A stretch of DNA of 64,000 nucleotides from a bacterium (lineage in GTDB: Bacteria > SZUA-182 > DTGQ01 > JAFGSM01): assembly GCA_016934595.1 (NCBI GenBank), contig JAFGSM010000080.1, positions 1,000 to 64,999 on the forward strand, read 5' to 3'. Position 1 is the first letter of the stretch; each line of letters starts with the position of its first letter. The notes beneath the pieces were generated by a model that saw nothing but the letters and a program-made list of their open reading frames with translations, was not told the DNA's origin and searched no databases. The position numbers and the translations under genes are program-made. Positions 2,004 through 60,053 of the stretch are shown one piece after another.

Positions 2004-2126
2004 GAAAAACCCGTGCCTTCATCTTTAAAATCCTGGGTTCCGGCTTTCGCCGGAATGACAGGAAAGGTTATTTTCATCTCCCTTTGTGAATCGGAGATTC
2101 ATGGGCGTTTCAAGAAAATCTACTTT

Positions 2127-2450: not shown

Positions 2451-3521
2451 TCAAGCGGTTTGCCTCATGCCAAAGCCAATGCCTAAACAAACTATAATCC
2501 CTATTATTACAGATGCAGGGCCCCATACGGACGGACCTGTGGGGGCGCTTGCCATCGCAAAATTATGTGCAAAAGCGGCTCCGGCCAGCATCCCGAGTAC
2601 AAATATGGCTGCATCTCCATCCCCCTCGCCTGACATGAACAACTGCCTTCCAGGGCACCCCCCCGCAAGCGCAAATGCAAGGCCGGCCAGCACCATGCCT
2701 CCGAAATTCCATAAATGGTTGCTATGGGCTATTGGCTGGCCTGTTATTCCAGGTTGGAACTGCCTGAAAACAAGATTTGTAATAAAAGCTCCGGCTATCA
2801 AGGCAATAACCCCGGAAATAAGATGCGTGTCGCGAATCAGTATAATATCCCTGAATGCGCCCATTGTGCAAAACCTGGTCCTCTGTGCCAGGAATCCTAT
2901 GATTATGGCAATGCTAAGGGATATAAGAACAGGGGCATATTGCGCCCCTGGACCGCTTTCACTGAAAAAAAGGCCGCCTGTAGGGAGCTTTGGCCGGAAA
3001 AGAAGGAGGAGAAGGAATGCAATCATGGTGACAGGAAACAGCAGCCCTGCGAATGTGTTTGACTTATGGTTCCGGCCCAGACTATACCCCGATTTTATAA
3101 AAAGGACGCCGATCCATACCCCAACAACAAGACCCAATATCCCTAAAATGGCATTGCCATCCCCGCCAGCGAGCCTGAGCATGGCGCGCCATGGGCATCC
3201 AAGGAAAACAAGCGACCCTGTCATGGCAAAAAAGCCCAAGATAAACCTTGCGATGGGGGAAGATCCTCCTCTGGGCTTATATTCTTTAAAAAGCAATGCG
3301 GCGATAAATGCCCCAAGCACAAAACCGATGATCTCAGGCCTCATGTATTGCACAACCGCCGCACGGTGAAAACCCAGTGCCCCTGCAATATCCCTTTCCA
3401 TACAGGCCACGCATATCCCCATATTTTTGGGGTTTCCCAGCCTTTGTAAGATGGAGGCAAAGACGCCTATGATTGATCCCACAATGACAATGCCCTTCCT
3501 GGTTGTAAAGAATTTTGACAT
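2451..3521 (-). CDS. YeeE/YedE-family membrane transporter (thiosulfate/sulfur- or selenium-compound uptake)
   Basis: A 356-aa polytopic membrane protein with two repeated halves and conserved Cys-containing motifs (CVACMERDIAGALG and ALAGGCPGRQLF) typical of YeeE/YedE. It is immediately followed by a TusA-like gene, as in the known yeeE-yeeD pairs. Confidence 0.75.
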   Translation of the reverse strand: MSKFFTTRKGIVIVGSIIGVFASILQRLGNPKNMGICVACMERDIAGALGFHRAAVVQYMRPEIIGFVLGAFIAALLFKEYKPRGGSSPIARFILGFFAMTGSLVFLGCPWRAMLRLAGGDGNAILGILGLVVGVWIGVLFIKSGYSLGRNHKSNTFAGLLFPVTMIAFLLLLLFRPKLPTGGLFFSESGPGAQYAPVLISLSIAIIIGFLAQRTRFCTMGAFRDIILIRDTHLISGVIALIAGAFITNLVFRQFQPGITGQPIAHSNHLWNFGGMVLAGLAFALAGGCPGRQLFMSGEGDGDAAIFVLGMLAGAAFAHNFAMASAPTGPSVWGPASVIIGIIVCLGIGFGMRQTA

Positions 3522-3806: not shown

Positions 3807-5870
3807 ATGATTTATATCCAGAACATCAAAAAACATTTCGGGCACAAAACCATATTCGATAGCGCTTCAGCCCATATACCCCCTAAGACTAGAGTTGGCC
3901 TGGTGGGACCCAATGGCTCTGGGAAAACTACGCTCCTTCGGATCTTAACCGGTGAAGAGGAACTGGATGGCGGCGGTATCTTTATAAATAAAGGAGCCCG
4001 GGCCGGTTATCTCAAACAGGAGGTATGGGATAATCCAGACCGCGGCATTTTGGCAGAGACGCTGTCGGGTTTTCCTGATCTTCAAAAGATTGAACAGGGC
4101 CTGATAGAACTGGAACGGCAGATGGAGGGCAAATTTCTGCCTGACACCCTTGAAAAATATGGAGAGTTGCGTCATCTTTTTGAGATACAAGGCGGTTACG
4201 ATATAGAACATCAGGCCAAGTCATTGCTTTGCGGCATGGGTTTCCGTCCGGAGCAATTCGCTCAGCCCCTGCACCAGTTCTCAGGCGGTTGGATGATGCG
4301 CGTCTGTCTCGCTAAATTACTATTGGCCAAGCCCGATGTGCTTTTGCTGGATGAGCCAACGAACCATCTTGACCTGGAGACTATATTATGGCTTGAAAAT
4401 TTTTTGCTTGAATATCCTGGCACCATCGTGTTCACAACACACGACCAGGTATTTATGCAGAATGTGGCAGGGCGTATTCTGGAAATCAGCCGGTGCAAGT
4501 TGTTTACATTTATAGGAAGCTTCGAGGAATATGTGGAGGAAAAGGCTTCCAGGCAGGAACAGATCGAGGCCCAGTATAAAAACCAGCAGAAAAAGGTCGA
4601 ACAGCAGGAGCGTTTTATTGAGCGCTTCCGGTACAAGGCCACCAAGGCAAAGCAGGTGCAAAGCCGTATCAAAATGCTTCAGAAAAAGGAACGGGTGGAT
4701 ATGATAGAAGACACCCCGCGTGCGATGAAGATTCGCCTGCCCCAACCACCCCGGTCAGGTCAAAAGGTGGTGCATGTCTCAAATGTTACAAAAAAATACG
4801 GCGAGAAGACGGTCTATGAAGGGCTAAACCTTATCATCGAACGGGGTGAGAAGGCGGTGCTGGTTGGGCCGAACGGTGCAGGCAAATCTACACTCCTCAA
4901 GATTATAGCCGGAGTAATAGACATCCAGGCTGGAACCGTATCTTATGGCCACCAGGTCACAATGGATTACTACGCCCAGCATCAGCTCGAAACCCTGAAT
5001 CCGGATTTCAGCATACTGGAGGAATTGACGGCTGTGACACAGGACTTCACTCTTGAGAAACGCCGAAAACTATTAGGGGCATTCCTGTTCTCAGGCGAAG
5101 ATGTTTTTAAGCGCATCTCCATTTTGTCCGGCGGCGAAAAGGCACGAATCGCCCTGGTTAAAATGCTATGCCGGCCAATGAATTTCCTGGTCATGGATGA
5201 GCCTACCAATCACCTGGATATCCTTTCTCGTCAGGTACTTGAGGATGCGCTGTCAGACTATGATGGAACACTTGTTTTTATCTCCCATGACAGGGCATTT
5301 ATCAATTCCTTCGCAAACCGTGTTATCGAGATCAGGGATGGCAAACTGCACAGCTATCCAGGAAATTACGATGACTATGAATGGAAAAAAGCCCAGGAAA
5401 AACCACAAACACCTCTTGATCAAAAAATAAAAAACCGGCTGTCACCCGAATGCGTGGCCCCGGATATTCACGGCTCAAATTCTAATGAAAAGCCCATGAA
5501 TCTTAGATTCACAAAGGGGAATGAAAATATACAGAAGGGATTTTCAGATAAAAAAATCCCGGGCAAAAAAGACGGGCGTCGCGTGCGAGCCGAAAGGATA
5601 CAGGAAAAATCCAGGCGTCTAAAACCGCTTAAGGAGAAACTGGCTATTCTGGAAAAAGATATAGCAGCCCTGGAAGCAGAAAAAGAGGTAATCTCATCGG
5701 CAATATGCGACCCTAATATCATAAGCGATACTTCAGTCTATCCGCAAAAACTCAAAAGACACCGTGTCCTTGAGACAAGACTCCAAATATATTATGACGA
5801 ATGGGCAGAAACTTCCCAGCAGATAGAGGAAACCCTTTCAGAGTTTTCAGAGTTACAACCGGGTGATTAA
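3807..5870 (+). CDS. ABC-F family ATPase (EttA/Uup/YheS-like, two ABC domains) with an extended C-terminal tail
   Basis: Two Walker A motifs ([18 protein letters not shown]), two ABC signature motifs ([19 protein letters not shown]) and no TMDs. The C-terminal roughly 150 aa is a coiled-coil tail that contains an in-frame copy of the dispersed repeat (aa ...[23 protein letters not shown]...). Confidence 0.85.
5496..5560 (+). repeat. One unit of the dispersed structured repeat family, inserted in-frame in the ABC-F tail
   Basis: ATGAATCTTAGATTCACAAAGGGGAATGAAAATATACAGAAGGGATTTTCAGATAAAAAAAT matches the units at 58878, 14803 and 8911. It contains two palindromes: TGAATCTtAGATTCA and GAAAATatacagaagggATTTTC. 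Confidence 0.7.
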
Positions 5871-8910: not shown

Positions 8911-8990
8911 TCAATGAAACACTCATGCCTAAATTCGACACAAAGGAGAATGAAAATCCAAAACTATTTTCAGGTGAAAATCAGCGCAGA
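8911..8990 (+). repeat. One unit of the dispersed structured repeat family (intergenic)
   Basis: AATGAAACACTCATGCCTAAATTCGACACAAAGGAGAATGAAAATCCAAAACTATTTTCAGGTGAAAA is nearly identical to one unit (rc) inside the ydbH-like gene at about 14880-14935. It is open-reading-frame-like (MPKFDTKENENPKLFSGENQRRKIEIPK*). Confidence 0.7.
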
Positions 8991-9173: not shown

Positions 9174-9246
9174 GCGCCCGTAGCTCAGGGGACAGAGCGC
9201 AGCGCTCCGGACGCTGAAGCCGAAGGTTCAAGTCCTTCCGGGCGCA
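9174..9246 (+). tRNA. tRNA-Arg (anticodon CCG)
   Basis: Hand-folded cloverleaf. Acceptor GCGCCCG/CGGGCGC, D-stem GCTC/GAGC with a G18G19 loop, anticodon stem CAGCG/CGCTG, loop CTCCGGA (U33, CCG, G37), T-stem GAAGG/CCTTC and T-loop TTCAAGT, discriminator A. No encoded CCA. The six-frame ORF 9108..9302 is an artefact over this tRNA. Confidence 0.85.
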
Positions 9247-9424: not shown

Positions 9425-11080
9425 ATGAAATTTAAGGGGGGAAATATGCATAAAAGATATCTATATAATAATAAACGCCCATGTCACCTTATATCGCCAC
9501 AAATAATGAGAATAAACAACGAGATTTATTTTAGGAACAAATATCCATGGCACTTTGGAGCCGCCACGAATCATGAAAATCGAACCTATTTTCGAGACAA
9601 ACGCTCATGCCGCTTCGCTGCGCCACGAATCATGAAAATAAACAACGATGTTTATTTTCGAGACAACAAGAATAAAAACCCTTTGTCCTCGATGTGCCTT
9701 TCTGTAATGATTGTAATGATGATGATAATATTGCCTTGTCTCATTTCTGGCCATGCTATAGCAGACGAAAACAGTGCATTCCCGTTCTATCCATCTTTAA
9801 TCATTCCGGCAGCAGACGGGGGAATAGGTCTGGATGCCTTTAAGGCCGCTATGTCCTGCAGAGGATGTCACCTTTCTACCTTCAAGGAATGGGAGGGATC
9901 AACACACTCCCTTGCCTTTAAAGACCCTGTATTTCTTTCGATGTGCAGATTAGGTTCCAAAGCAACAAACGGACAAACGGACAAATTGTGTCTTGGATGC
10001 CATACACCCATAGGGCTTATTACATCCGATATAACAACCCCTGATGATGAAACTAAGGCAAATCAAATCTCCAAAGATGGCGTTCAGTGCGATTTTTGCC
10101 ATGTCGTAAGCAATACGACCTATAACAAAGCCAAGACCGCTTCCCCCCAGAATGCGTCATTCCTTGTCCAGCCAGGGGAAATTAAATGGGGGCCGATAGA
10201 CAATTGTGAATCCACATTCCACAAATCGGAATTTTCCGAGCTTCATACCAGTTCCAAGTTTTGTGGCAACTGCCACAATATCTTCTTGACAGGCCAGGAT
10301 ATCAAGATTGTAAAGACCTACGACGAATGGGAAAAATCCGTTTACGCCCAGAAAGGTATAGAGTGCCAGGACTGCCATATGATGCCTGTTGAATTGGCAA
10401 AAATAGCGGCAGACAAACTGGAAAAACCTAAAAATTCCGGTAAGGCCGCATCCGTTGCGCCCTTGAGAGAAAATATACATGTGCACAGGTTTGTCGGCGG
10501 AGGATTCGATCTGGAAAAAGGCCCACGCGTAACTAATCAGCAGAAAGAGACGGAAAAAAGGCTAAAAAGCGCGGCAAGACTGGATATCGATGTTAAGCCC
10601 TCCCCTTCCTCAAAAGGCAGCCTGGTCTTAACGGTAACCGTACACAATGAAAGGGCGGGCCATAATCTGCCTACAGGGATCCCTGGCATAAGGCAGTTAT
10701 GGCTTGAGGTAATCATCTCAGACAAAGGCTCAAAAGAGGTGTTTCGTTCAGGCGGCCTGGATAAAGACGGAAATATCCAAAAAGACGCAAAGCGCCTTGG
10801 TGTTGCAGCCGTTGACAAATCAGGCGACCCTGTATATAAACCCTGGGAAATTGCGGCATTAAAGACAGATACAACCATCCCTCCGAAGGGAAAAGGGGGG
10901 TTCAAATTCGACGTAAGCCTTCCCGATGACATTGCGTGGCCGATGACTGCGAAAGCCATTCTTCACTACAGGGCATTCAGTCCATCATTGCTTAAGGATC
11001 TTTTGCCGGATGCCCCTCGTGAGATACCTGTCTTTGACATGGCAACATCAGAGATCGCCATACAAGGCCCTGTTCTCTGA
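9425..11080 (+). CDS. Multiheme c-type cytochrome (five CxxCH motifs), secreted
   Basis: CRGCH, CLGCH, CDFCH, CGNCH and CQDCH are present. A signal-peptide-like segment MCLSVMIVMMMIILPCLISGHAIA sits at about aa 90, which suggests the real start is near 9692. The first roughly 270 nt of the listed ORF are the tandem repeat units. Confidence 0.8.
   Translation: MKFKGGNMHKRYLYNNKRPCHLISPQIMRINNEIYFRNKYPWHFGAATNHENRTYFRDKRSCRFAAPRIMKINNDVYFRDNKNKNPLSSMCLSVMIVMMMIILPCLISGHAIADENSAFPFYPSLIIPAADGGIGLDAFKAAMSCRGCHLSTFKEWEGSTHSLAFKDPVFLSMCRLGSKATNGQTDKLCLGCHTPIGLITSDITTPDDETKANQISKDGVQCDFCHVVSNTTYNKAKTASPQNASFLVQPGEIKWGPIDNCESTFHKSEFSELHTSSKFCGNCHNIFLTGQDIKIVKTYDEWEKSVYAQKGIECQDCHMMPVELAKIAADKLEKPKNSGKAASVAPLRENIHVHRFVGGGFDLEKGPRVTNQQKETEKRLKSAARLDIDVKPSPSSKGSLVLTVTVHNERAGHNLPTGIPGIRQLWLEVIISDKGSKEVFRSGGLDKDGNIQKDAKRLGVAAVDKSGDPVYKPWEIAALKTDTTIPPKGKGGFKFDVSLPDDIAWPMTAKAILHYRAFSPSLLKDLLPDAPREIPVFDMATSEIAIQGPVL
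9473..9664 (+). repeat. Three tandem units (66, 60 and 66 bp) of the dispersed structured repeat family, immediately upstream of or inside the 5' end of the multiheme cytochrome ORF
   Basis: The three units are at 9473-9538, 9539-9598 and 9599-9664. Each contains CCACgAAtcATGAgAAT-loop-ATTTTcGAG-type hairpins (for example GAAAATAAACAacgaTGTTTATTTTC, an 11-bp perfect stem). All three are in-frame with the cytochrome ORF (…RFAAPRIMKINNDVYFRD…). Confidence 0.7.
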
Positions 11081-13740: not shown

Positions 13741-15192
13741 CTAATTGACCTTTACTGCCGTACCCCTGTCCTCGAAAATCCTGTTGATCCTTTCCCTCAT
13801 ATCCTTAAAGCTTATTATGTTATCAGGGTTCTGATTGACCATATCGATCCCGCGGAAAAGCCCTTTTCTTATAATAAACTCCTGGCCGTCCTCCTGAATA
13901 AGCCCCCTCAGTGAAAAGATATCGTTTCTTAGCTCGCACCTGAACCCTATTTTTGAGTATGGATAATAGGAAAAAAATCTGTTTAATCCGGAATTAAGAA
14001 CACTCTGAACACCGGAAGACCCTGTGCCGATCATGGAGAGGTTATTAATGGCATCCACGCTGATCTTCTGCCTTACCCCTTTCTGTTTAACCGATTCCAC
14101 CTCCATCAAAAACCTTGCAGGCTGACCATATTCTATCACAAAATCGGTCAACTTTCCTTTGATAACACCGCTGATCTTGCCGATGGGAACCCTTTCTGTC
14201 AGCTTATCAAGCCCTATGCCATCCCAAAAGATAGACCCGCCCAGCCTTCTCCCCTGGCTGAAGGGCATCTCAAGATAAATATCCTTGATATCTAAACCTC
14301 CTCCGAATATTTCAGCATAAAGCGAGCCTGTAAAATCGATCCTGTCATTCTTATATGTCAGATGAGGTATATCTCCATCCAATCGCCCGGATACAGGAAA
14401 ACCTGATCCCTTTGAAATCGTCATCAGATCCAATGCCTTAATGCCTATGGATGCCTGGAAAACAGCGTTTTTGGAGATTATCTCCGCGCCGCTCAGCTCC
14501 CTCAAAAAGACTTCCCCACCGAAGATATTTATATAGACAGGGTCCTTTATCTGGAAACGGTTTTGAGAAAACATGGGATGCAGCTCCAAGTCATCATAAA
14601 ATCCATTTAGCCAGGAAACCTTCTTGATACGGATGACCCCTGAACGTCCATCTGTGAATGGCCCCTGTTCACAGAATGAAGACGCTGCAAGTTCTAAAGG
14701 CAATTCTATAGTCAGTCCAGAGATGGAGATTTCACAGGCAGGTATATCTATTGATGGAAAAGATGCCTTCCATTCGCCGCTAAGCCTCCAACCGCCACTT
14801 TCATCTGAAAATCCCTTCTGGGTATTTTCATTCCCCATTGTGAATCTAAAATTCATGGGCGTTTCACCTGAAAATAGTTTTGGATTTTCATTCTCCTTTG
14901 TGCCGAATTTAGGCATGAGTGTTTCATCTATCATCGCCCTTAGTTTAAAAACAGAGCATCCCGATATATTAATCCCCTGTAAAGCAGGCGGTCCCTGTTC
15001 ATTGCCTTCCGCGATGATAAAACCGAGGAGAGCGGAATGGTTGATGCCAGACGTCTTTGTCTCTAAATCAAGAGACAATCCCTTTTGATCCATTTTTATC
15101 TGAAACCGCAGGCCCCCGATCTCTAAAATATCCAGAACCCCTTTAGACTCTAAACGCTGAAAGTTTGCAAAAAAAAACCGCTTAAATCCCAC
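13741..15192 (-). CDS. YdbH/AsmA-family protein, C-terminal fragment (same gene as 15150..16550 after a +1T correction)
   Basis: Inserting one T in the T9 run (plus-strand A9 at about 15170-15178) joins ...WDLSGFF to FANFQRLESKG... in one frame, giving about 940 aa, comparable to E. coli YdbH. It contains two in-frame repeat units (...MPKFGTKENENPKLFSGETPMNFRFTMGNENTQKGFSDE...). Confidence 0.6.
   Translation of the reverse strand: MGFKRFFFANFQRLESKGVLDILEIGGLRFQIKMDQKGLSLDLETKTSGINHSALLGFIIAEGNEQGPPALQGINISGCSVFKLRAMIDETLMPKFGTKENENPKLFSGETPMNFRFTMGNENTQKGFSDESGGWRLSGEWKASFPSIDIPACEISISGLTIELPLELAASSFCEQGPFTDGRSGVIRIKKVSWLNGFYDDLELHPMFSQNRFQIKDPVYINIFGGEVFLRELSGAEIISKNAVFQASIGIKALDLMTISKGSGFPVSGRLDGDIPHLTYKNDRIDFTGSLYAEIFGGGLDIKDIYLEMPFSQGRRLGGSIFWDGIGLDKLTERVPIGKISGVIKGKLTDFVIEYGQPARFLMEVESVKQKGVRQKISVDAINNLSMIGTGSSGVQSVLNSGLNRFFSYYPYSKIGFRCELRNDIFSLRGLIQEDGQEFIIRKGLFRGIDMVNQNPDNIISFKDMRERINRIFEDRGTAVKVN
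14803..14935 (-). repeat. Two tandem units of the dispersed structured repeat family, in-frame inside the ydbH-like gene
   Basis: The reverse complement reads ...TGAAACACTCATGCCTAAATTCGGCACAAAGGAGAATGAAAATCCAAAACTATTTTCAGGTGAAACGCCCATGAATTTTAGATTCACAATGGGGAATGAAAATACCCAGAAGGGATTTTCAGATGAAA... One unit is nearly identical to the intergenic copy at 8911-8990. Confidence 0.7.
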
Positions 15193-16550
15193 GAAACAGA
15201 GCGCCCGGACAAGTCTTTATATATTGTACCCCAAAGATATTCGCCGTTTTTAATATCTCCATGAGTTCTGAATGTAACCTTGTCATCCGTCGTCTGGGGC
15301 TGGGGATAAACCAGGTCCAGGTTAACATTCAGTTCGATCCCCTCGCCCGCCTTTGTGCCGTCATTGGAACTGAACCCTCCATCCTTTACCTTAATCTCCA
15401 GCCCCCCTTCGAATGTCCATTTCTCCTGCATCCTCATCCCTGTGAGTTGGACGCTGGCATCCCCTCTTCCCTTTACATCCCAAAGATTATTACCTTGGTC
15501 CAAAAACGGACCTATTATTTCAGTCAATCCTGTGATAAAAAAATCCCTTGTAAAAAGCGCAGCCCTGCTGGAACACCCCTCCTTAAAACAAACATCCATA
15601 TGCCCATCAATAACACCCATCTCCGGCGCTTCTGCCTTAAAACCTCTTATGCTCAAGGCCCCCCTTTGCAAATCATATACAATATCCGCATGGATATTAA
15701 TGCCTTTAAGCGCAGGGATATTACCCCCGTCGATCTGAATGCCATTTAACCCCATGTTCACGTCTGGAAGACTTATCTTCTGCGCATCGATAAAGACTCC
15801 GCAATCAAGGCGCATACCCTCTATTGATACGCCTTTTATTGTAATGCCAGAAAGGGATAAGGAAAAGTGCCCGCTGCCTGATAAAACCTGCGAAAGGGGT
15901 GCAAGATTGAGTGTCAACTCTATCTGCCCGGACGTACAGGATAAAAGCGAGGGAGGACATACCTGTAATGCCCCTTTTAAAAAGACCCTGCCCCCTGTGT
16001 CAGCGCCCATATCCCGAACCTCAACAACGGCGTCTTTCAGCTCCAAGATGCCCAGACTGTCGGAAATCTTGATGGAAAAGGCCCCGCCCTTTATATCCAT
16101 CTTCCTTATATACGGCATCTTTCTAATAATATCCTGCAAACGAGAAAAAGCCTGATTGGCATCTAAATGCCCATCACCGGAGGATCTGTCTTTTGAAGAT
16201 TTATTTTTTACAGCATCAGGCATTACATCCAATGCTATATCAGGCTTATAAAATACAAGGTCTACAATCTCGGGCCTGAAGCCGCTTCCGATCCTGCCGT
16301 CAAAGTTAACCGTCTCCACCTCTGCCCTTGCAGAGAGGCCGTCATCCCTCTTTATGGAAAGGCGTTCTATGTTCCCTTCCAATCCGGGTCTTAACGCAAA
16401 ACCTTTCGCATTCAGGGAAATACCGTATTTCAAACGCAGAACATATCCAAGGATATTGACAGGGATGGGGGTAAAGAAAAAAAGGGACACGCAAGCACAA
16501 AAAACTGCGGATAAAAAAATGGCTGTTATTACTATCTTTCTTTTATGCAT
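15150..16550 (-). CDS. YdbH/AsmA-family protein, N-terminal fragment (frameshifted; continues in 13741..15192)
   Basis: An N-terminal signal anchor is followed by long beta-rich repetitive sequence typical of AsmA-like/TamB-like lipid-transfer proteins. Its stop overlaps the next ORF at a T9 homopolymer. Confidence 0.6.
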   Translation of the reverse strand: MHKRKIVITAIFLSAVFCACVSLFFFTPIPVNILGYVLRLKYGISLNAKGFALRPGLEGNIERLSIKRDDGLSARAEVETVNFDGRIGSGFRPEIVDLVFYKPDIALDVMPDAVKNKSSKDRSSGDGHLDANQAFSRLQDIIRKMPYIRKMDIKGGAFSIKISDSLGILELKDAVVEVRDMGADTGGRVFLKGALQVCPPSLLSCTSGQIELTLNLAPLSQVLSGSGHFSLSLSGITIKGVSIEGMRLDCGVFIDAQKISLPDVNMGLNGIQIDGGNIPALKGINIHADIVYDLQRGALSIRGFKAEAPEMGVIDGHMDVCFKEGCSSRAALFTRDFFITGLTEIIGPFLDQGNNLWDVKGRGDASVQLTGMRMQEKWTFEGGLEIKVKDGGFSSNDGTKAGEGIELNVNLDLVYPQPQTTDDKVTFRTHGDIKNGEYLWGTIYKDLSGRSVSWDLSGFFLQTFSV

Positions 16551-24127: not shown

Positions 24128-25101
24128 GGTTTAGCCTCCCAGCAGCTTACAAGATGGCCCGGCCCGATCTCAACAAGCCTTGGCATATCTGTAATGCAAC
24201 GCTGCCTTGCCCGCTCGCATCTTGATGCAAAAGGGCACCCTATAGGCATGTCAAAGAGGTCGGGAACCGTGCCTTTGATCGTCTTCAGCCTGCCGCCCGC
24301 GATTTTCCTGTCATCAAGCCTCGGCAATGAATCAAGAAGCGCGATGGTATAAGGATGTAACGGGCCGTGAAAAAGATCCCTTACCCCCGCCTCTTCAACC
24401 ACATACCCTGCATACATAACCGAGACCTTCTGAGCAGTTTCCGCAACCACGCCGAGGTCATGAGTAACCATGAGAACAGACATACCCAAGCTGTTTTTCA
24501 GGCTGTCTATAAGCTCAAGTATCTGGGCCTGTATAGTAACATCCAGTGCCGAAGTGGGTTCATCTGCGATCAAGAGATCAGGCTGGCATGAAAGGGCCAT
24601 GGCTATCATCACCCTTTGCCTCATACCCCCGCTCATCTGATGGGGATAATCCTTGATCCTTTTTGAAGGATCTGGAATGCCAACCATGTCTAAGATCTCG
24701 ACAGACCTTTGGACCGCCTTTTTGTGGTCAACCCTTTGATGCAGGCGGATAGCTTCGGCTATCTGTTCTCCGACAGTGAAGACCGGATTCAAAGATGTCA
24801 TAGGTTCCTGAAAGATCATGGATGTTTCGTTTCCCCTGATATCGCGCATCTCATCCGGATCGAGACCGAGCAGGTCCCTGCCGTTAAAAGTGATCCTGCC
24901 TGACATAATCCTGCCCGGCGGGTTTGGGACAAGCCTCATGATTGAAAGGGAAAGCACTGTTTTACCGCATCCGGACTCTCCAACCAAACCCAGCGTTTCG
25001 CCTTTTTTTATCTTAAGGTCAACCCCGTTCACAGCCTTTACAACCCCGTCAGAGGTAAAGAAAAAGGTGTGCAGGTCTTCGACAGCAAGCAGGTACTTCA
25101 T
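24124..25101 (-). CDS. Oligopeptide/dipeptide ABC transporter ATP-binding protein (OppD/DppD-like)
   Basis: Walker [10 protein letters not shown], signature [12 protein letters not shown], Walker [13 protein letters not shown], and the C-terminal [14 protein letters not shown] motif. Confidence 0.85.
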
Positions 25102-25161
25102 CTGAAAATCCCTTTCATGTGTTTTTCATCCCTGTTTGCAGATAGAAAATTAATAAGGGTC

Positions 25162-26769
25162 TCATCTCACCCATACACTGTCCAGAAAAAGATCGCCAAG
25201 AGAATTCGTGAAATCGCCTTTGACCCAGCTTCTGGCTGCCCATATCCTGTGAGGATAACAAAGATAAATGGCCACCACTGCCTTATCGATCACGGGGGAC
25301 AGGATGCTGAATGACATATCCCTGACATTGGGATCACACTCCTTGAGAGCCGATGAAAGGTCTTCTTCCCATGTATATGTAGATGCCCCCAGCTTGTTCT
25401 CTAAAGATGAATGGTGATAAAGCCGCCATGTGAATTGATCCGCCCCTCCACCTCCCCTCCAGTCCTCCCAGTCCTCGAGCGCCGCCTGAAAAAAAGCCCT
25501 GTCTTTCCCGCCCCGTCCATACACAAAGTCAAAAAGCTCATTTTTAGACATGGGAAATAAGTCCACAAGGACATTGATATGTGAGAGTTGTTCCTTGATG
25601 ATTTGGGCAATTGCACGGAAAGGCTCATCATCCGTATACATAAGGGAAAAAGAAACCTGCAAATCTGAGGTAAAACCCTCATCCGCAAGCAACTTTAACG
25701 CAAGATTCGGGTCAAAAAACTGCCCGCCGGCGCCTGCGTCATAAAGCCTGTGCCACTGAGGGAGACAAGACAGCGCAGGGGTTGCAAAACCGTCAAATGC
25801 CTTCTTTGCTATCTCCTCCCTGTTTATGCCCAATGAAATGGCCTTCCTGATGTTTGGCCTGTCAAATGGGGACCGGTCTGCATTGAGGTATATCTGGCAT
25901 ATTCTCTGTCCAGGCTTATGAACAAGCCGGATGTATGATCTTGAGGCAAGCCCGGATGCCTCGTTTGTGGAAAGATTTGCAGCGATATCTATCCTTCTTC
26001 GTCTGAGGTCTTGAACCACATCGCTGCCAGGCTCTGGAAAATGGAATATTATCCTGTGGAGAAAGGGATTGTTGGCCTTGTCTGTCTTATATGAATAGTT
26101 TCTTTCAAGGATTACATCCTTTCCCCTTTCCCATTCAATAAATCTGAAAGGGCCTGTGCCAACGGCTGCAACCTTGCCGTAAGAAGACCCATACCGGGTC
26201 ACAGCCTTAATGGAAAGGGGGCGCATCTCATGCCTGGCAAGCAATTCCAAAAGATCAGGGCAATCATGACCTAAAGTGATCTTTATCTGCATCGGAGCAA
26301 TTACCTCAACAGAGTTAATGCCTTGAAATATTTGTCGTGAAGGGCATTGAGTGGCCGGATCAAGCAGCCTCTTTATGGTAAATACAACGTCATTGGCATC
26401 AAGCGGCTTCCCATCATGAAACTTTATATCATGCTTAATCTCGAGTATATATTCATGATCGCTTATTCTCACAGGCATGGATGCTGCAAGCACTGGAACT
26501 ATTCTGTCGTTTTGGTCGTACTCAAGGAGGCCGTCATAAATTTGTTCTATTAACCATTTATCGGACAGGGTTTCCGCCTTTTGAGGGTCTAGTGTATAAA
26601 CATGATCAGGACATGCTAGGACAAGCGCGCCCCCCTCGTGTATTTTGACTTTGTGCGGCTCTTGATGGGTTTTCTCTGGGTAGACAGATAATCCAGCGCC
26701 TATCGTAAGGGAAAATATTACAGATGCTAAAAATACCGTCCTCAAACTAAAAACAAACGGATTCCTCAT
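25162..26769 (-). CDS. ABC transporter substrate-binding protein, family 5 (peptide/nickel/opine type)
   Basis: A signal peptide plus about 510 aa with the SBP_bac_5 pattern (…YTLDPQKA…, …GTGPFRF…). It is followed directly by the two ATPase genes, but no permease genes are adjacent. Confidence 0.75.
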   Translation of the reverse strand: MRNPFVFSLRTVFLASVIFSLTIGAGLSVYPEKTHQEPHKVKIHEGGALVLACPDHVYTLDPQKAETLSDKWLIEQIYDGLLEYDQNDRIVPVLAASMPVRISDHEYILEIKHDIKFHDGKPLDANDVVFTIKRLLDPATQCPSRQIFQGINSVEVIAPMQIKITLGHDCPDLLELLARHEMRPLSIKAVTRYGSSYGKVAAVGTGPFRFIEWERGKDVILERNYSYKTDKANNPFLHRIIFHFPEPGSDVVQDLRRRRIDIAANLSTNEASGLASRSYIRLVHKPGQRICQIYLNADRSPFDRPNIRKAISLGINREEIAKKAFDGFATPALSCLPQWHRLYDAGAGGQFFDPNLALKLLADEGFTSDLQVSFSLMYTDDEPFRAIAQIIKEQLSHINVLVDLFPMSKNELFDFVYGRGGKDRAFFQAALEDWEDWRGGGGADQFTWRLYHHSSLENKLGASTYTWEEDLSSALKECDPNVRDMSFSILSPVIDKAVVAIYLCYPHRIWAARSWVKGDFTNSLGDLFLDSVWVR

Positions 26770-27210
26770 TTACAGCCCCTTCACAATCTTCCAGCCTCCA
26801 TCCTCCTTCCTAAGAAAGATCTGTTCCTTTCCCCTGGCGCGGTCTCTTTTAGCGCCGGCAAAAAAAACAATCTCATAATCCTCAACAAGCATGGCCTTTT
26901 GACCTTCCAAATAGACCGTCCTTTTTGATGTCAAAAAATCTATCATTTCAAAGACCTCAAAGTTTTTCTGCATCCTTTCCCTTACCACATCAAAGGAGTC
27001 TTCTCTGTCTTTGTAATCTTTGGATATGCATGTCATATAAAGGTCTATGTCCTTTTCCCTTATAGCCTTTTCTCTGATGGACATAACTTGATTTATCGCC
27101 TTTTCCGCCTCTGCGCTTGATCGATCTGTAGATGCGCAGCCTGCAAAAAAGGCCACAAAAAACATGAGGGGGATGGTTATGGTATTTATTCGGGCTCGAT
27201 ATCTTTGCAT
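26770..27210 (-). CDS. Hypothetical lipoprotein (NTF2/SnoaL-like fold plausible)
   Basis: Signal peptide with lipobox FFAGC. Small alpha+beta protein; no confident family. Confidence 0.35.
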   Translation of the reverse strand: MQRYRARINTITIPLMFFVAFFAGCASTDRSSAEAEKAINQVMSIREKAIREKDIDLYMTCISKDYKDREDSFDVVRERMQKNFEVFEMIDFLTSKRTVYLEGQKAMLVEDYEIVFFAGAKRDRARGKEQIFLRKEDGGWKIVKGL

Positions 27211-28019
27211 GAAACCTTGATCTTTTCCGTGAAAGGGCTTTCTGGAAACTCCCGGCAGAGGTATGCCTGAACGCCCCTCGCCTCGTCTAACATGCCCTCC
27301 ATCATGTATGTCTGGGAAAGCAGATAAAGGGTCTCATCCCTCCACGGGACTTCAGGATAAAGCGACCATATCTTCTGAAGCCTGCCTCTTGCCGCCTTGT
27401 ACGAGCCGGTCTTCAGGTAAAACCTGGCCACATAGAGGTCATGCTCAGAAAGCCTCAAACGGCATTTGGATACACTATCCTTTGCCTCTTCTGTCATCTG
27501 GCTCTGCGGATATTCCTTGAGGAATCTCTCGAATGATTCCAGAGCCTTGATCGTATAAGTCTGATCCCGATCCGGCCCCAATATTTGCTTAAAAAATGTC
27601 TGCCCTATCCTGAACCTAGCCATGTCAGCCTTTGAATGGAGGGGGTGAAGATTAAGGAATCTCTCGTATTCCGCCCTTGCAGAATCAAATTCTTTGAGTT
27701 GAAAATAACAATCGGCCCTGTTCAGTCTGGTCTTGGCCATCAAAGGGCTCTCAGGATACTCCTCTGTCAGCCTGCCAAAGACCTCCTCCGCCTTCCGGAA
27801 TTTGTCCTTGCCCAGATAATCCATGGCCTGATTATATAGCTCCTGATCCGTAAGCACTCTTGCCTTTTTGCTGCAAGAAGGCAAGGCTGGGGACATGATG
27901 ACAAGGAGGCAGATAACCCATAGAGAAAATATGGTACGTCCTTTTTTATTTTCAATAAATATTTTCGTCTGAAAATCGTTTATGATTTTCATCCTCCTTT
28001 GTGCCAATTTTATTGGCAT
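27186..28019 (-). CDS. bamD: Outer-membrane protein assembly factor BamD-like TPR lipoprotein
   Basis: Lipobox ALPSC after a signal peptide, then TPR repeats with BamD-like motifs (YNQAMDYLGKDKFRKAEEVF..., ...YVARFYLKTGSYKAARGRLQ...). The true start is probably an internal Met. Confidence 0.65.
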   Translation of the reverse strand: MPIKLAQRRMKIINDFQTKIFIENKKGRTIFSLWVICLLVIMSPALPSCSKKARVLTDQELYNQAMDYLGKDKFRKAEEVFGRLTEEYPESPLMAKTRLNRADCYFQLKEFDSARAEYERFLNLHPLHSKADMARFRIGQTFFKQILGPDRDQTYTIKALESFERFLKEYPQSQMTEEAKDSVSKCRLRLSEHDLYVARFYLKTGSYKAARGRLQKIWSLYPEVPWRDETLYLLSQTYMMEGMLDEARGVQAYLCREFPESPFTEKIKVSCKDIEPE

Positions 28020-28091
28020 GGTTGTTTCATTATAATTTGTAAAGGTAAATTAAAAATCCATTAAATAGTTTTGCCGAAAGATTGTCGCTTG

Positions 28092-48594: not shown

Positions 48595-49692
48595 ATGTTG
48601 GAAAAACTGCCTTTTAAAAATCTCATCAAGACGTTATCCGCTTTGTTTTATGTTTTTGTTCTATCCATCCTTTTCGTTAATTCGTTAAATATCGCCCGAG
48701 CCCAAGAAGCGAAATCAGTTTCAGACATATATATCGTGACGGAAGGAGACACCTTATGGGACATATCAGCCAGATTTTTTGGCGATCCCTTCCTTTGGCC
48801 AAGCCTGTGGCAAAAAAATCCACAGGTCAATGACCCTCACTGGATATACCCAGGACAAATCATCTACCTGAAAGAATCTCCCCTGGCGGTTTCTAAACCC
48901 AGCCCAATCAAGCCCCTTAAAACATCCCTTGAAAAAGAGGCTATTGAAACAAAGGCCGTGGCCATCGAAGATTCTCTAACTGCCAAAACCCGTTATGATA
49001 TCTCGCAGGACAAGATGGATAGCTGCAGCTATATAATCCCTGTCTCGGTTTTTAATCAAAGGCAGAAAGAAGAAGGTTCCGGCAAGATCACCAACAGCAA
49101 AGAAGAAAAAATAAGCCTCAGTTATCTTGATCATGTCTATATAGATTTGGGTGAAGGAAAGGTCAAACCTGGGCAAATCATGAGCATATTTAGGGCCGAA
49201 TATGACACAAATGGCCTTAAAGGACTAAATGAGCCCCATTGCATGATACGCATCCTTGGAAAGGCAAAGGTATTAGAGGTGCAAGATAATATGAGCTTGG
49301 CCGAGATCATAAAATCCTATCATGCAATATCCATAGGGGATATGCTAACGCCTTATCAAGCGATGCCCAAACCCGTCCTTAAACCTCCGAAGGTAAAAGA
49401 CCTGGATGGTTCAATAGTTGCGAGCGAGGAACCAAAGGAATATCTTTCCGATTTTGATACCGTTTTTTTAAATTTAGGGAAAAGGGATGGATTGGAATCC
49501 GGAAATCCTCTTGAAATATACCGTCTGAAGCAAATTAAGACGGGAGCAAACGATAAAACGGGAGATTTGATTGTTGTTCCGCTTGGCGAAGTCCTTGTAT
49601 TAAAAACCGAGGATGGCACTTCAACAGGGATGGTCACCAAAAGCATTCAGCCTGTCCTGCTTGGAGACAGAATAAGGGTTTATCAGGATTAA
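48595..49692 (+). CDS. LysM-domain peptidoglycan-binding protein
   Basis: Signal peptide, then the LysM motif IYIVTEGDTLWDISARFFGD...LWQKNPQV...PGQIIYL. Confidence 0.65.
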   Translation: MLEKLPFKNLIKTLSALFYVFVLSILFVNSLNIARAQEAKSVSDIYIVTEGDTLWDISARFFGDPFLWPSLWQKNPQVNDPHWIYPGQIIYLKESPLAVSKPSPIKPLKTSLEKEAIETKAVAIEDSLTAKTRYDISQDKMDSCSYIIPVSVFNQRQKEEGSGKITNSKEEKISLSYLDHVYIDLGEGKVKPGQIMSIFRAEYDTNGLKGLNEPHCMIRILGKAKVLEVQDNMSLAEIIKSYHAISIGDMLTPYQAMPKPVLKPPKVKDLDGSIVASEEPKEYLSDFDTVFLNLGKRDGLESGNPLEIYRLKQIKTGANDKTGDLIVVPLGEVLVLKTEDGTSTGMVTKSIQPVLLGDRIRVYQD

Positions 49693-49726
49693 ACCCTCAT
49701 GAACAAAAGTTGTTCGCACCAGAGGA

Positions 49727-49762
49727 TGAAAATGTATTTTCATGGTAAAAGGCGTGGTTCAA
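49727..49762. promoter_or_regulatory. Short member of the structured repeat family, placed as a bidirectional terminator-like hairpin between convergent genes
   Basis: CACCAGAGGATGAAAATgtATTTTCATGGTAAAAGG contains an 8-bp perfect palindrome (ATGAAAAT/ATTTTCAT). It shares the CAC.A..GG.ATGAAAAT-ATTTTCA.G..AAAA frame of the repeat family. Confidence 0.45.
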
Positions 49763-58745: not shown

Positions 58746-58877
58746 TTTTTCTCCTCTCCTTGTCTTTTGTTAATTTATAAATATACCTTGAAAGGTCATA
58801 ACCCGAATATTCATAGATTATAAGTGAGATATTCAAATGAATCAATTAAATATGGAAAAAACTTTGATGATAGGATA

Positions 58878-59035
58878 AAATGAAACACCCATGAATCTAC
58901 GATTCACAAAAAAGGATGAAAATACCCAAAGGGGATTTTCAGGTGAAAAAATAAAATGAAACACACATAAATCTCTCGCCTCACAAAGAAGTGTGCGAAT
59001 ACCCAAACAGGGATTTTCATGTGAAAAAATAAAAA
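58878..59035 (+). repeat. Two tandem units of the dispersed structured repeat family (intergenic, upstream of an epimerase gene)
   Basis: Unit 1 is AAATGAAACACCCATGAATCTACGATTCACAAAAAAGGATGAAAATACCCAAAGGGGATTTTCAGGTGAAAAAATA. Unit 2 is AAATGAAACACACATAAATCTCTCGCCTCACAAAGAAGTGTGCGAATACCCAAACAGGGATTTTCATGTGAAAAAATA. Unit 1 is itself a mini-ORF: MNLRFTKKDENTQRGFSGEKIK*. Confidence 0.7.
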
Positions 59036-59132
59036 ATGCCTACTTTCACAAGCTATTAAGCATTTATGATAAATCCTTTTTCCGGGACATTAGGCATTTA
59101 TGACAAATCTTATAAAGACATAAGGCAAAGGG

Positions 59133-60053
59133 ATGCGAAAACGAAAAATACTAATAACAGGAGCAAGTGGATTTCTGGGTAATCACCTGACAAAATTATA
59201 CTTAGGGGAAGCTGAAAAATTTGAGGTTTTTGCGACCTTCTATAACAATCATCCTCACGGTTTGCAAGGTATAAAGCTTATTGGCATTAATCTTGGCGAT
59301 TCCAATACAACTAAGGACCTAATCCAGAAAATACAACCCGATATCTGTTTTCATTTGGCAGCGCTGTCAAGCCCTGATAAATGCCATACAAACCAGGAAC
59401 TCGCAAAAAGTATTAATATCCTCGGGACAAAAAATCTTGTAGACTCTTTGCCTGTGTCCTGCAAATTAATTTTCACCTCCACGGATTTGGTATTTGATGG
59501 AGAAAAGGGCTGGTACTCTGAATCCGACTCCCCTAATCCAACCAATTATTATTCTCAAACAAAATTAGAGGCTGAAAAAATAACAAATAATTTTAAAGGC
59601 ATTTATTGCATCGTCAGGCTCTCTTTGATGTTTGGATGGGGAGATGATAATCATCAAAGCTTCTCTGACTGGATAATAAATTCGATCAGGGGTGAAAAAA
59701 CCATCGGTCTATATACTGATCAATTCAGGACCATGATTTATGTAAAACATGCTGCACTTATTTTAAAATGGATTAGCGAATCCAGCATCAAAGGGACAGT
59801 TCACCTGGGGGGCTTCGACAGGATATCAAGATACAATTTTGGCATTCAACTTTGCGAGGCATTTGGCTTATCTAACAGGCTATTGAGGCCAGTTAAAATG
59901 GGCATTTGTAATGGAAAAGCCGTCAGAGGGAGGGATTGCTCCCTTTCAACCACAAGGTTGATCCATGAATTAGGGATTAAACCTTATACCATAAAGATGG
60001 GCTTGGAAGATATGAAAAGAGATGACAGTTTTTCATCACAACAGGCATTTTGA
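59133..60053 (+). CDS. NAD(P)-dependent sugar epimerase/reductase (SDR family, RmlD/GDP-sugar-reductase-like)
   Basis: Rossmann motif ILITGASGFLGNHL and catalytic YSQTK (YxxxK). Confidence 0.7.
   Translation: MRKRKILITGASGFLGNHLTKLYLGEAEKFEVFATFYNNHPHGLQGIKLIGINLGDSNTTKDLIQKIQPDICFHLAALSSPDKCHTNQELAKSINILGTKNLVDSLPVSCKLIFTSTDLVFDGEKGWYSESDSPNPTNYYSQTKLEAEKITNNFKGIYCIVRLSLMFGWGDDNHQSFSDWIINSIRGEKTIGLYTDQFRTMIYVKHAALILKWISESSIKGTVHLGGFDRISRYNFGIQLCEAFGLSNRLLRPVKMGICNGKAVRGRDCSLSTTRLIHELGIKPYTIKMGLEDMKRDDSFSSQQAF

Follow-up and report, generated by a model that had tools for sequence, protein, structure and literature searches.

A short dispersed repeat lying in frame in the linker before the C-terminal domain of a YheS-like ABC-F ATPase

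How does a gene for an ABC-F ATPase come to carry a copy of a short dispersed repeat within its reading frame, and what does the copy do to the protein? The question is raised by a 64,000-nt stretch of DNA (contig JAFGSM010000080.1, positions 1,000 to 64,999; hereafter the window) from a metagenome-assembled genome (MAG) of an uncultured bacterium, in which an ABC-F gene occupies positions 3807-5870 of the plus strand. An earlier note, made from the DNA alone, placed a 65-bp repeat at 5496-5560 within the C-terminal tail of this gene and described it as a mobile element fixed in an essential-class translation factor. We regard the segment as very probably a tolerated, probably neutral in-frame repeat insertion that resembles the palindromic elements of Rickettsia (RPEs).

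The gene is one uninterrupted open reading frame (ORF) of 687 codons, and the deposited protein MBN2372973.1, titled 'ABC-F family ATP-binding cassette domain-containing protein', is identical to its product over 687 aa. Pfam recognizes two ABC_tran domains (PF00005) with ABC_tran_Xtn (PF12848) between them at residues 225-303, as well as ABC_tran_CTD (PF16326) at residues 609-668 (34.3 bits, cut-off 32). The protein has the ABC-F layout of two tandem nucleotide-binding domains (NBDs) joined by a PtIM/ABC_tran_Xtn linker, and it passes the NCBIfam model ribo_prot_ABC_F (449 bits, cut-off 380). None of the NCBIfam equivalogs of the E. coli ABC-F paralogs is reached, with 410 bits against a cut-off of 917 for PRK10636 (YheS) and 425 against 900 for Uup, and the closest solved structure is that of E. 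coli YheS (E=7e-106). We therefore call the gene YheS-like; it is no proven YheS ortholog. An AlphaFold2 model, for which the ortholog alignment was supplied, explains the whole chain as NBD1, the helical PtIM linker, NBD2 up to about residue 531, a disordered linker (residues 535-586) with a predicted local distance difference test (pLDDT) score below 50, and a coiled-coil C-terminal domain (CTD; residues 587-681), which leaves no part of the chain for a membrane domain, as is typical of ABC-F proteins. The CTD helices, 587-633 and 644-681, are confident (pLDDT above 80), and this helical hairpin is intact and in frame. The normal two-domain core ending near residue 530 that the earlier note described is indeed present.

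The net inserted unit spans nt 5487-5549, that is, 63 nt or 21 codons (residues 561-581), and lies between the end of NBD2 (...YEWKKAQE, around residue 530) and the start of the CTD. It is missing from all 37 of the best aligned ABC-F orthologs, which are at most 69% identical to the protein, are mostly 649-657 aa long and in many cases carry the label candidate division KSB1. Relative to them the segment is an indel, as had been suspected. Identity to these orthologs is 76% in the core and 62% in the CTD but 4-18% in the linker, whose length is about 24-40 aa in the orthologs and 78 aa in one of them. Without the 21 residues, the linker of the window protein would measure 34 aa, within this range, and ortholog P0028 has an unrelated linker insert that is longer than the repeat. 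One sense frame is open across the copy, and it remains open for 1711 nt upstream and 313 nt downstream. No stop was found ahead of the repeat, and the conserved CTD follows it. The tail peptide quoted in the earlier note is encoded, by nt 5490-5558. The repeat itself is where the note had it except for a few bases, and the net unit is 63 rather than 65 nt long. Its assignment to the CTD does not stand: in the structure model, the insert extends a disordered, hypervariable tether between NBD2 and the coiled-coil CTD and interrupts neither folded part.

The repeats form a real family, far beyond chance, to which the ABC-F copy belongs with significant scores. The copy matches the covariance model at 5485-5554 (+) with E=1.4e-14, an nhmmer profile made without that copy with E=1.5e-14, and a profile built from copies of other organisms only with E=1.5e-8. 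The window has 8 loci with 10 copies in all that score E<1e-3 in nhmmer and covariance-model searches. Positions 5486-5553 are 91% identical over 68 nt to 14799-14866, a copy inside a YdbH-like gene. The earlier note had called the ABC-F unit identical at the nucleotide level to the copies in ydbH and to intergenic mini-ORFs, which is too strong, although the ABC-F and YdbH-like copies do share the same frame. At the protein level, 4 of 20 compared residues differ between the two, and we therefore see no protein-level constraint on the encoded peptide.

The consensus unit, 60-66 nt long, reads RTGAAAC-NNN-CATG, the rest of a hairpin P1 whose stem starts at the TG of CATG, CACAAAGGRGR, a second hairpin P2 (TGAAAAT, loop, ATTTTCA) and a terminal G-RTGAAA; the two hairpins are independent and have 5-7 bp each. 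In the ABC-F copy, P1 (TGAATCT-T-AGATTCA) lies at 5497-5511, the conserved single-stranded, Shine-Dalgarno (SD)-like core CAAAGGGGAA (consensus CACAAAGGAGRA) at 5512-5521, where it is read as T-K-G-N, and P2 (TGAAAAT, an 11-nt loop, ATTTTCA) at 5522-5546, all on the plus strand. Both hairpins are perfectly intact there, and the core contains the SD-like AAAGGGG. Pairing of P1 is kept among the copies through compensatory sequence changes (TGAAT/ATTCA, TGCC/GGCA, TGCCAAT/ATTGGCA, TGCCGAC/GTCGGCA). Across 38 model-aligned copies, 94.9% of the hairpin cells are paired, and double changes between CG and AU occur at two P1 positions, in 14 and 7 sequences; none of 500 shuffled controls reached the observed values. 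The P2 stem is nearly invariant throughout the family and gives no information on covariation, and its loop ranges from 2 to about 45 nt. In the stems, G-U and A-C pairs are equally frequent (11:10), so structure at the RNA level and at the DNA level cannot be separated. Every copy has GAAA in direct orientation at both ends. A single sense frame is open through the unit, since the frames ATG AAA CNC CCA TGA and A TGA stop, and this open frame is the one used in ABC-F. Since P1 varies in length, mini-ORF readings of the unit (MK(H/R)P followed by a stop, among others) lack conservation beyond this MAG.

Two further proteins carry the repeat in frame. On the minus strand, ORFs 15150-16550 and 13741-15192 together make up a single YdbH/DUF748-like gene (13741-16550), whose homologs are single 839-aa ORFs, some with PF05359 or PF11739. 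Two tandem units at 14798-14927 (-), of 60 + 63 nt (123 nt, 41 codons), are read in the frame of the ABC-F copy (TPMNFRFTMGNENTQKGFSD) and encode residues DETLMPKFGTKENENPKLFSGETPMNFRFTMGNENTQKGFS, which are missing from all 11 aligned homologs. The empty site in the closest relative, L025, reads ATA GAT GAT AAT GGG GGT TGG (I-D-D-N-G...), against ATA GAT GAA-(123 nt)-AGT GGC GGT TGG in the window, and the frame is unchanged. Furthermore, an exhaustive search of representative proteins with the element peptide, insensitive for so short a query, found two in-frame units, flanked by ...YE and ...GE, in the ParB-N-domain protein MBN2372769.1, and also matched an annotated 47-aa mini-ORF, MBN2373981.1 (JXL19_09370). 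A word-indexed protein search with a 43-aa element peptide gave no candidates. That the ParB-N protein and the mini-ORF come from the same MAG is indicated by adjacent accession numbers and by JXL19 locus tags, which the mini-ORF shares with the YdbH-like protein. In all three coding hosts, ABC-F, YdbH-like and ParB-like, the insertion begins and ends with a GAA codon in the phase xAT-GAA-Axx.

The two frames of the YdbH-like gene overlap at a T9 run (GG-TTTTTTTTT-G; 15169-15177, minus strand), where a -1 ribosomal shift or one extra U would make the protein collinear with the 839-aa homologs. The same run, with the same position and frame change, is found in three other assemblies (L025, about 3001-3009; L027, about 2968-2976; L028, about 1278-1286), whose C-terminal products are 42-53% identical to that of the window; in L029, a homolog with a single ORF, an in-frame T7 stands at this position. 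From this comparison, T9 looks like a conserved site of programmed frameshifting or transcriptional slippage and not like an assembly error. Immediately upstream of the YdbH-like gene of L027, a fragment of a Y1 transposase gene (PF01797) lies at 1602-1913; L027 has no copy of the repeat.

Outside the window the repeat is sparse but widely spread. Four contigs of relatives (36.8 kb) have no copy, against 10 in the 64-kb window, which indicates a lineage-specific and apparently recent burst. Indeed, over 66 nt the intergenic copy at 8914-8979 shares 98% identity with positions 14862-14927 inside the YdbH-like gene, which points to very recent copying. A strict pattern hits 9 contigs of species-representative genomes and 15 metagenome contigs, with one or two copies per genome. 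The contigs have 32-55% GC and, by their labels as deposited, are titled Vulcanimicrobiota, Gammaproteobacteria, Actinomycetota or just 'bacterium'. Beyond the bases that the pattern forces, the external copies keep GAAAC-NNN-CATG, a covarying P1 and CAGNNGAAA. When 10 of them are aligned with 250 nt on either side, conservation ends at the unit boundaries and the flanks are unrelated; we reject on this ground that the unit is part of a larger conserved element. A pattern scan of viral contigs and a blastn search of plasmids found no copy, and a literature search for the core sequence gave no match. In a gathering-threshold Rfam scan of the whole window, nothing but a tRNA reaches its gathering score, and a permissive scan of 58800-59140, the locus of a dimer, gave no match near any gathering score.

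Many copies stand in a close relation to the genes around them. About 9 of 10 copies that lie between genes of the same direction share the orientation of those genes, and the repeat's 5' end is no more than about 17 nt away from the upstream stop codon at 10 loci. In the window, the stops of an OppA-like ORF and of ORF 48595-49692 lie in the 5' motif of a repeat. In MAG JALXFI01, a copy at 2532-2604 of L001 fits exactly between UvrA and a RimO/MiaB-like gene, where the UvrA stop is the TGA of ATGAAAC and the next gene starts at the 3' GTG; in the same MAG, the copy at 3517-3589 of L009 lies between a histidine phosphatase and a CobB-like gene that starts at the 3' GTG. The 3' RTG of the repeat is the start codon of the RimO-like and CobB-like genes and, in the window, of an OppD-like gene; when repeat-borne starts are used, Pfam domains start at residues 5 and 9. 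The genes downstream of copies include those for a Se/S carrier, OppD-like, BamD-like, RmlD-like, RimO-like and CobB-like proteins, YbbR and a nucleotidyltransferase. These are functionally unrelated, and we reject a riboswitch or a gene-specific cis-regulatory leader on that account.

In the mechanism that we propose, one 63-nt unit of a short, non-autonomous dispersed repeat would have inserted at an (A)ATGAAA(A)-like site of the ABC-F gene in the phase xAT-GAA-Axx, as comparison with the orthologs suggests. With a length of 3n and a sole open sense frame, the unit would let the gene be read through with a gain of 21 hydrophilic residues. The insertion would have been tolerated as near neutral, the flexible tether growing from about 34 to 55 residues, and would persist without counter-selection. 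The same process may have placed two units in a variable loop of the YdbH-like protein and two in the ParB-like protein of the same MAG. The repeat presumably inserts at sites of the RTGAAA type. Met-Lys starts and ATGA stop/start overlaps make such sites abundant on the sense strand, and a preference for them would explain both the co-orientation with genes and the junction positions. At junctions, the repeated (RT)GAAA would preserve the upstream stop as well as the downstream start; within genes, stop codons would be avoided only by the xAT-GAA-Axx phase plus a length of 3n, which is exactly matched by the three coding hosts. A speculative candidate for mobilization in trans is a single-strand HUH/Y1 transposase that recognizes the hairpins. 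Among the roughly 30 Pfam-annotated ORFs of the window, an annotation that does not extend to its second half, there is no transposase, and a cognate Y1 transposase was not identified in this annotated part.

For the ABC-F protein, the consequence is most likely a longer flexible tether and no more. The C-terminal extension of E. coli YheS is invisible in cryo-EM on the ribosome (PMC13249984) and the C-terminal extensions of ABCF proteins are easily lengthened or shortened over evolution (PMC6723617). The ribosome contact that the earlier note ascribed to this part of the protein is accordingly not established. The consensus of one MAG, with no relative closer than 69% identity, gives no basis for 'fixed'. 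E. coli has four ABC-F paralogs, each individually dispensable, and a description of the gene as essential-class is unsupported. The insertion can be called unusual in a relative sense only, as in-frame repeats in housekeeping genes are well known from the RPEs of Rickettsia (PMC10969869).

Several points weigh against the reading as a near-neutral insertion. We infer translation through the insert from the intact frame and the conserved CTD. The nearest ABC-F ortholog is just 69% identical, and there is therefore no clean DNA-level empty site at this locus. The direct GAAA repeats could be a target-site duplication or an intrinsic end of the element: in some copies the match extends over the two to four preceding bases (AGATGAAA at 14797-14927, AGATGA at 25095-25165, AAGAAA in L002), in others these bases differ, and the insertion mechanism and target preference are accordingly still proposals. 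Furthermore, the element keeps its unpaired blocks in MAGs that differ in phylum label and range from 32 to 55% GC; such conservation would not usually be expected of purely selfish DNA and suggests that the element may have a function.

Such a function might be sought in the ABC-F gene itself, where the insert could have been co-opted, either because the longer tether alters the reach of the CTD to a partner or because translation of the ABC-F mRNA is modulated by the two RNA hairpins together with the SD-like sequence inside the gene. The perfect hairpins, the AAAGGGG core, a linker almost doubled in length and the unpaired blocks shared with distant MAGs would fit this idea. We nevertheless consider it improbable, as the segment is in no ortholog, the ortholog linkers are hypervariable in sequence and length (that of P0028 having the longer, unrelated insert), the same element stands in unrelated proteins and in intergenic DNA, and most of the few nucleotide differences from the 91%-identical YdbH-like copy change the protein. 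Mobile inserts can also be bypassed by ribosomes, as in the mitochondrial byps and in T4 gene 60, and the strong structure of the element would allow that it is removed or bypassed at the RNA or ribosome level and never translated; alternatively, the gene could be a decaying pseudogene. Both are very improbable. The total inserts have a length of 3n in the sole open frame in all three coding hosts (63 nt; 60 + 63 nt; two in-frame units in ParB), which would be needless if they were excised or bypassed; in ABC-F, no lesion is seen in the core, and the CTD after the insert is conserved and in frame. Least probable of all, to the point of being negligible, is a chimeric join at the repeat. The contig is metagenome-assembled and repeats can mislead assemblers, but both flanks fall into the same ABC-F ortholog group and are collinear with the 37 orthologs, the YdbH-like case is collinear with its homologs too, and copies 85-91% identical over less than 70 nt are too short and too diverged to collapse.

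A different question is whether the family as a whole is a functional, portable intercistronic RNA module, built of stop, hairpin, SD, hairpin and start, of which the in-gene copies would be accidental by-products. The discrete unit with unrelated flanks at 10 aligned loci, the single-stranded blocks conserved across phylum labels, the canonical AAAGGAG, the gene co-orientation and the abutted stops and starts at the UvrA/RimO-like, phosphatase/CobB-like and OppA/OppD-like junctions all speak for such a module. We still find it rather unlikely, given that many copies lie hundreds of nt from any ORF, that a variant subfamily (9470-9669) lacks the SD-like core, that the 3' RTG is unconserved (GGG, GAG and AAG are also seen), that the G-U to A-C ratio does not favor a sense-strand RNA, and that the neighboring genes have unrelated functions. 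Moreover, both the burst within a single MAG and the insertions into genes look like mobility.

Insertion of a mobile repeat into coding DNA has its closest parallel in the RPEs, which are in-frame insertions in unrelated housekeeping genes at fold-compatible sites (Ogata et al., 2000, as summarized in PMC10969869). Like them, the repeat described here is short and non-autonomous, has one open frame and lies between and inside unrelated housekeeping genes, there in frame and at fold-compatible sites, here a disordered linker (ABC-F) or a variable loop (YdbH-like). It differs in unit size (60-66 nt against about 100-150), in having two short separate hairpins instead of one long palindrome, in its SD-like core and direct GAAA ends, in an unrelated host lineage, in being mostly intergenic and gene-co-oriented, and in having related copies in MAGs with different phylum labels. 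We reject membership in the RPE family on size and architecture, judged against the description of RPEs. Enterobacterial small mobile sequences such as the ERIC elements also have ORFs that are at times fused in frame to host genes (Delihas, 2007, as cited in PMC10969869). The likeness extends to small size, an open frame and occasional in-frame fusion; the ERIC element is 127 bp long with terminal inverted repeats, which the present repeat does not have. The repeat is likewise no miniature inverted-repeat transposable element, as its ends are direct (5' RTGAAAC, 3' RTGAAA) and the reverse complement of the 3' end mismatches the 5' end.

Among small hairpin repeats, the repetitive extragenic palindromes (REPs), their mosaic arrays (BIMEs) and palindrome-associated elements derived from IS200/IS605 (PMC3733652) share with the present repeat its high copy number, hairpins, absence of own coding capacity and presumed mobilization in trans, and its two subterminal hairpins resemble the left and right ends of IS200/IS605. 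A REP, mobilized by RAYT, is a single imperfect palindrome of 20-40 nt and extragenic, and we reject this assignment: the repeat forms two hairpins, lacks a GTAG or CGTC head and lies inside three host genes, and its arrays are direct tandems rather than inverted BIME pairs. Nor is it a CRISPR-like or minisatellite array, since its units abut without spacers and are dispersed. In layout it comes close to the mycobacterial interspersed repetitive units (MIRUs), which Supply and colleagues in 1997 reportedly described as units of 40-100 bp, often tandem, intergenic in operons and oriented with transcription; they are also said to contain small ORFs that overlap the neighboring genes at their start and stop codons. 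The dimers at 14798-14927 and 58880-59027, the shared orientation in roughly 9 of 10 tandem-gene contexts, the chain of ATGA overlaps at 25095-25165 and the stop/start arrangement in L001 (UvrA stop, RimO-like start) and L009 are all of this kind, and by analogy the repeat would count as MIRU-like in its intercistronic behavior. The likeness is one of layout alone, no sequence relationship being expected, and MIRUs are not known for covarying conserved hairpins or for in-frame insertion within proteins.

The other copies of the window show how varied the contexts are. An intergenic copy upstream of the Se/S-carrier gene (2018-2113, -) has a GC-rich hairpin, GTCATTCCGGCGAAAGCCGGAACCCAGG, with a GAAA tetraloop nested in its P2 loop at 2032-2059 (-), single-copy in the window; a similar nested module, translated as ...HSGEGWNPG..., lies inside one repeat unit of the ParB-like MBN2372769.1. 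The intergenic copy at 8914-8980 (+), the one 98% identical to 14862-14927, has a tRNA gene (9174-9246, +) about 200 nt downstream, and in L010 a sequence judged tRNA-like by eye lies about 150 nt upstream of a copy; this proximity may be coincidence. A diverged copy (25095-25165, -) fills the OppA-like/OppD-like junction, where three successive ATGA stop/start overlaps link the upstream stop to a mini-ORF of 16 codons, this to one of 6 codons and the latter to the start of the OppD-like gene, all within the copy. Another diverged copy, at 49688-49750 (+), has a 5' motif (ATTAAAC) in which the stop codon of that ORF, 48595-49692, lies, and two tandem copies at 58880-59027 (+) lie about 105 nt upstream of the RmlD-like gene.

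Two copies touch the 5' ends of ORFs. The copy at 27962-28030 (-) overlaps the 5' end of a BamD-like ORF (27186-28019, -), whose longest version begins inside the repeat; the start is ambiguous between the CCATG, a mid-element ATG and a site further downstream, and the copy may add an N-terminal extension before the BamD-like lipoprotein signal peptide. At 9470-9669 (+), three degenerate tandem units of the variant subfamily without SD-like core (CACGAATCATGAAAAT) lie at the 5' end of a multihaem cytochrome c-like ORF (9425-11080) and are open in frame with it. A signal-peptide-like stretch comes after these units, and they may therefore be a 5' untranslated region instead of coding sequence.

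Taken together, the in-frame insertion in ABC-F is of an ordinary kind. The repeat family, with a few unusual properties, seems not to have been described before. It could be a new junction-targeting mobile element or a reusable translation-coupling module. A bolder view, which we hold only tentatively and think more doubtful than not, is that the repeat is a cross-phylum, two-hairpin module of 60-90 nt that targets RTGAAA sites, a 'polite' portable intercistronic cassette of which the in-gene copies are the coding-region footprint. If so, the cassette would on insertion regenerate the upstream stop and the downstream start and supply a Shine-Dalgarno sequence of its own; with one open frame and a length of 3n it could survive inside genes too, and the inserts in the ABC-F, YdbH-like and ParB-like proteins would be the trace of a new class of gene-junction-seeking mobile element across bacterial phyla. 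For annotation, the units yield spurious mini-ORFs and doubtful N-terminal extensions, as in the BamD-like and cytochrome-c ORFs. On the preferred reading as a tolerated insertion, this MAG, in which at least three unrelated proteins carry the repeat in the same frame, would offer a clean case outside Rickettsia of a small repeat that adds residues to housekeeping proteins and leaves them unbroken. The linker before the ABC-F CTD would be a place that tolerates large insertions, which may be useful in reading the variation in tail length among ABC-F proteins.

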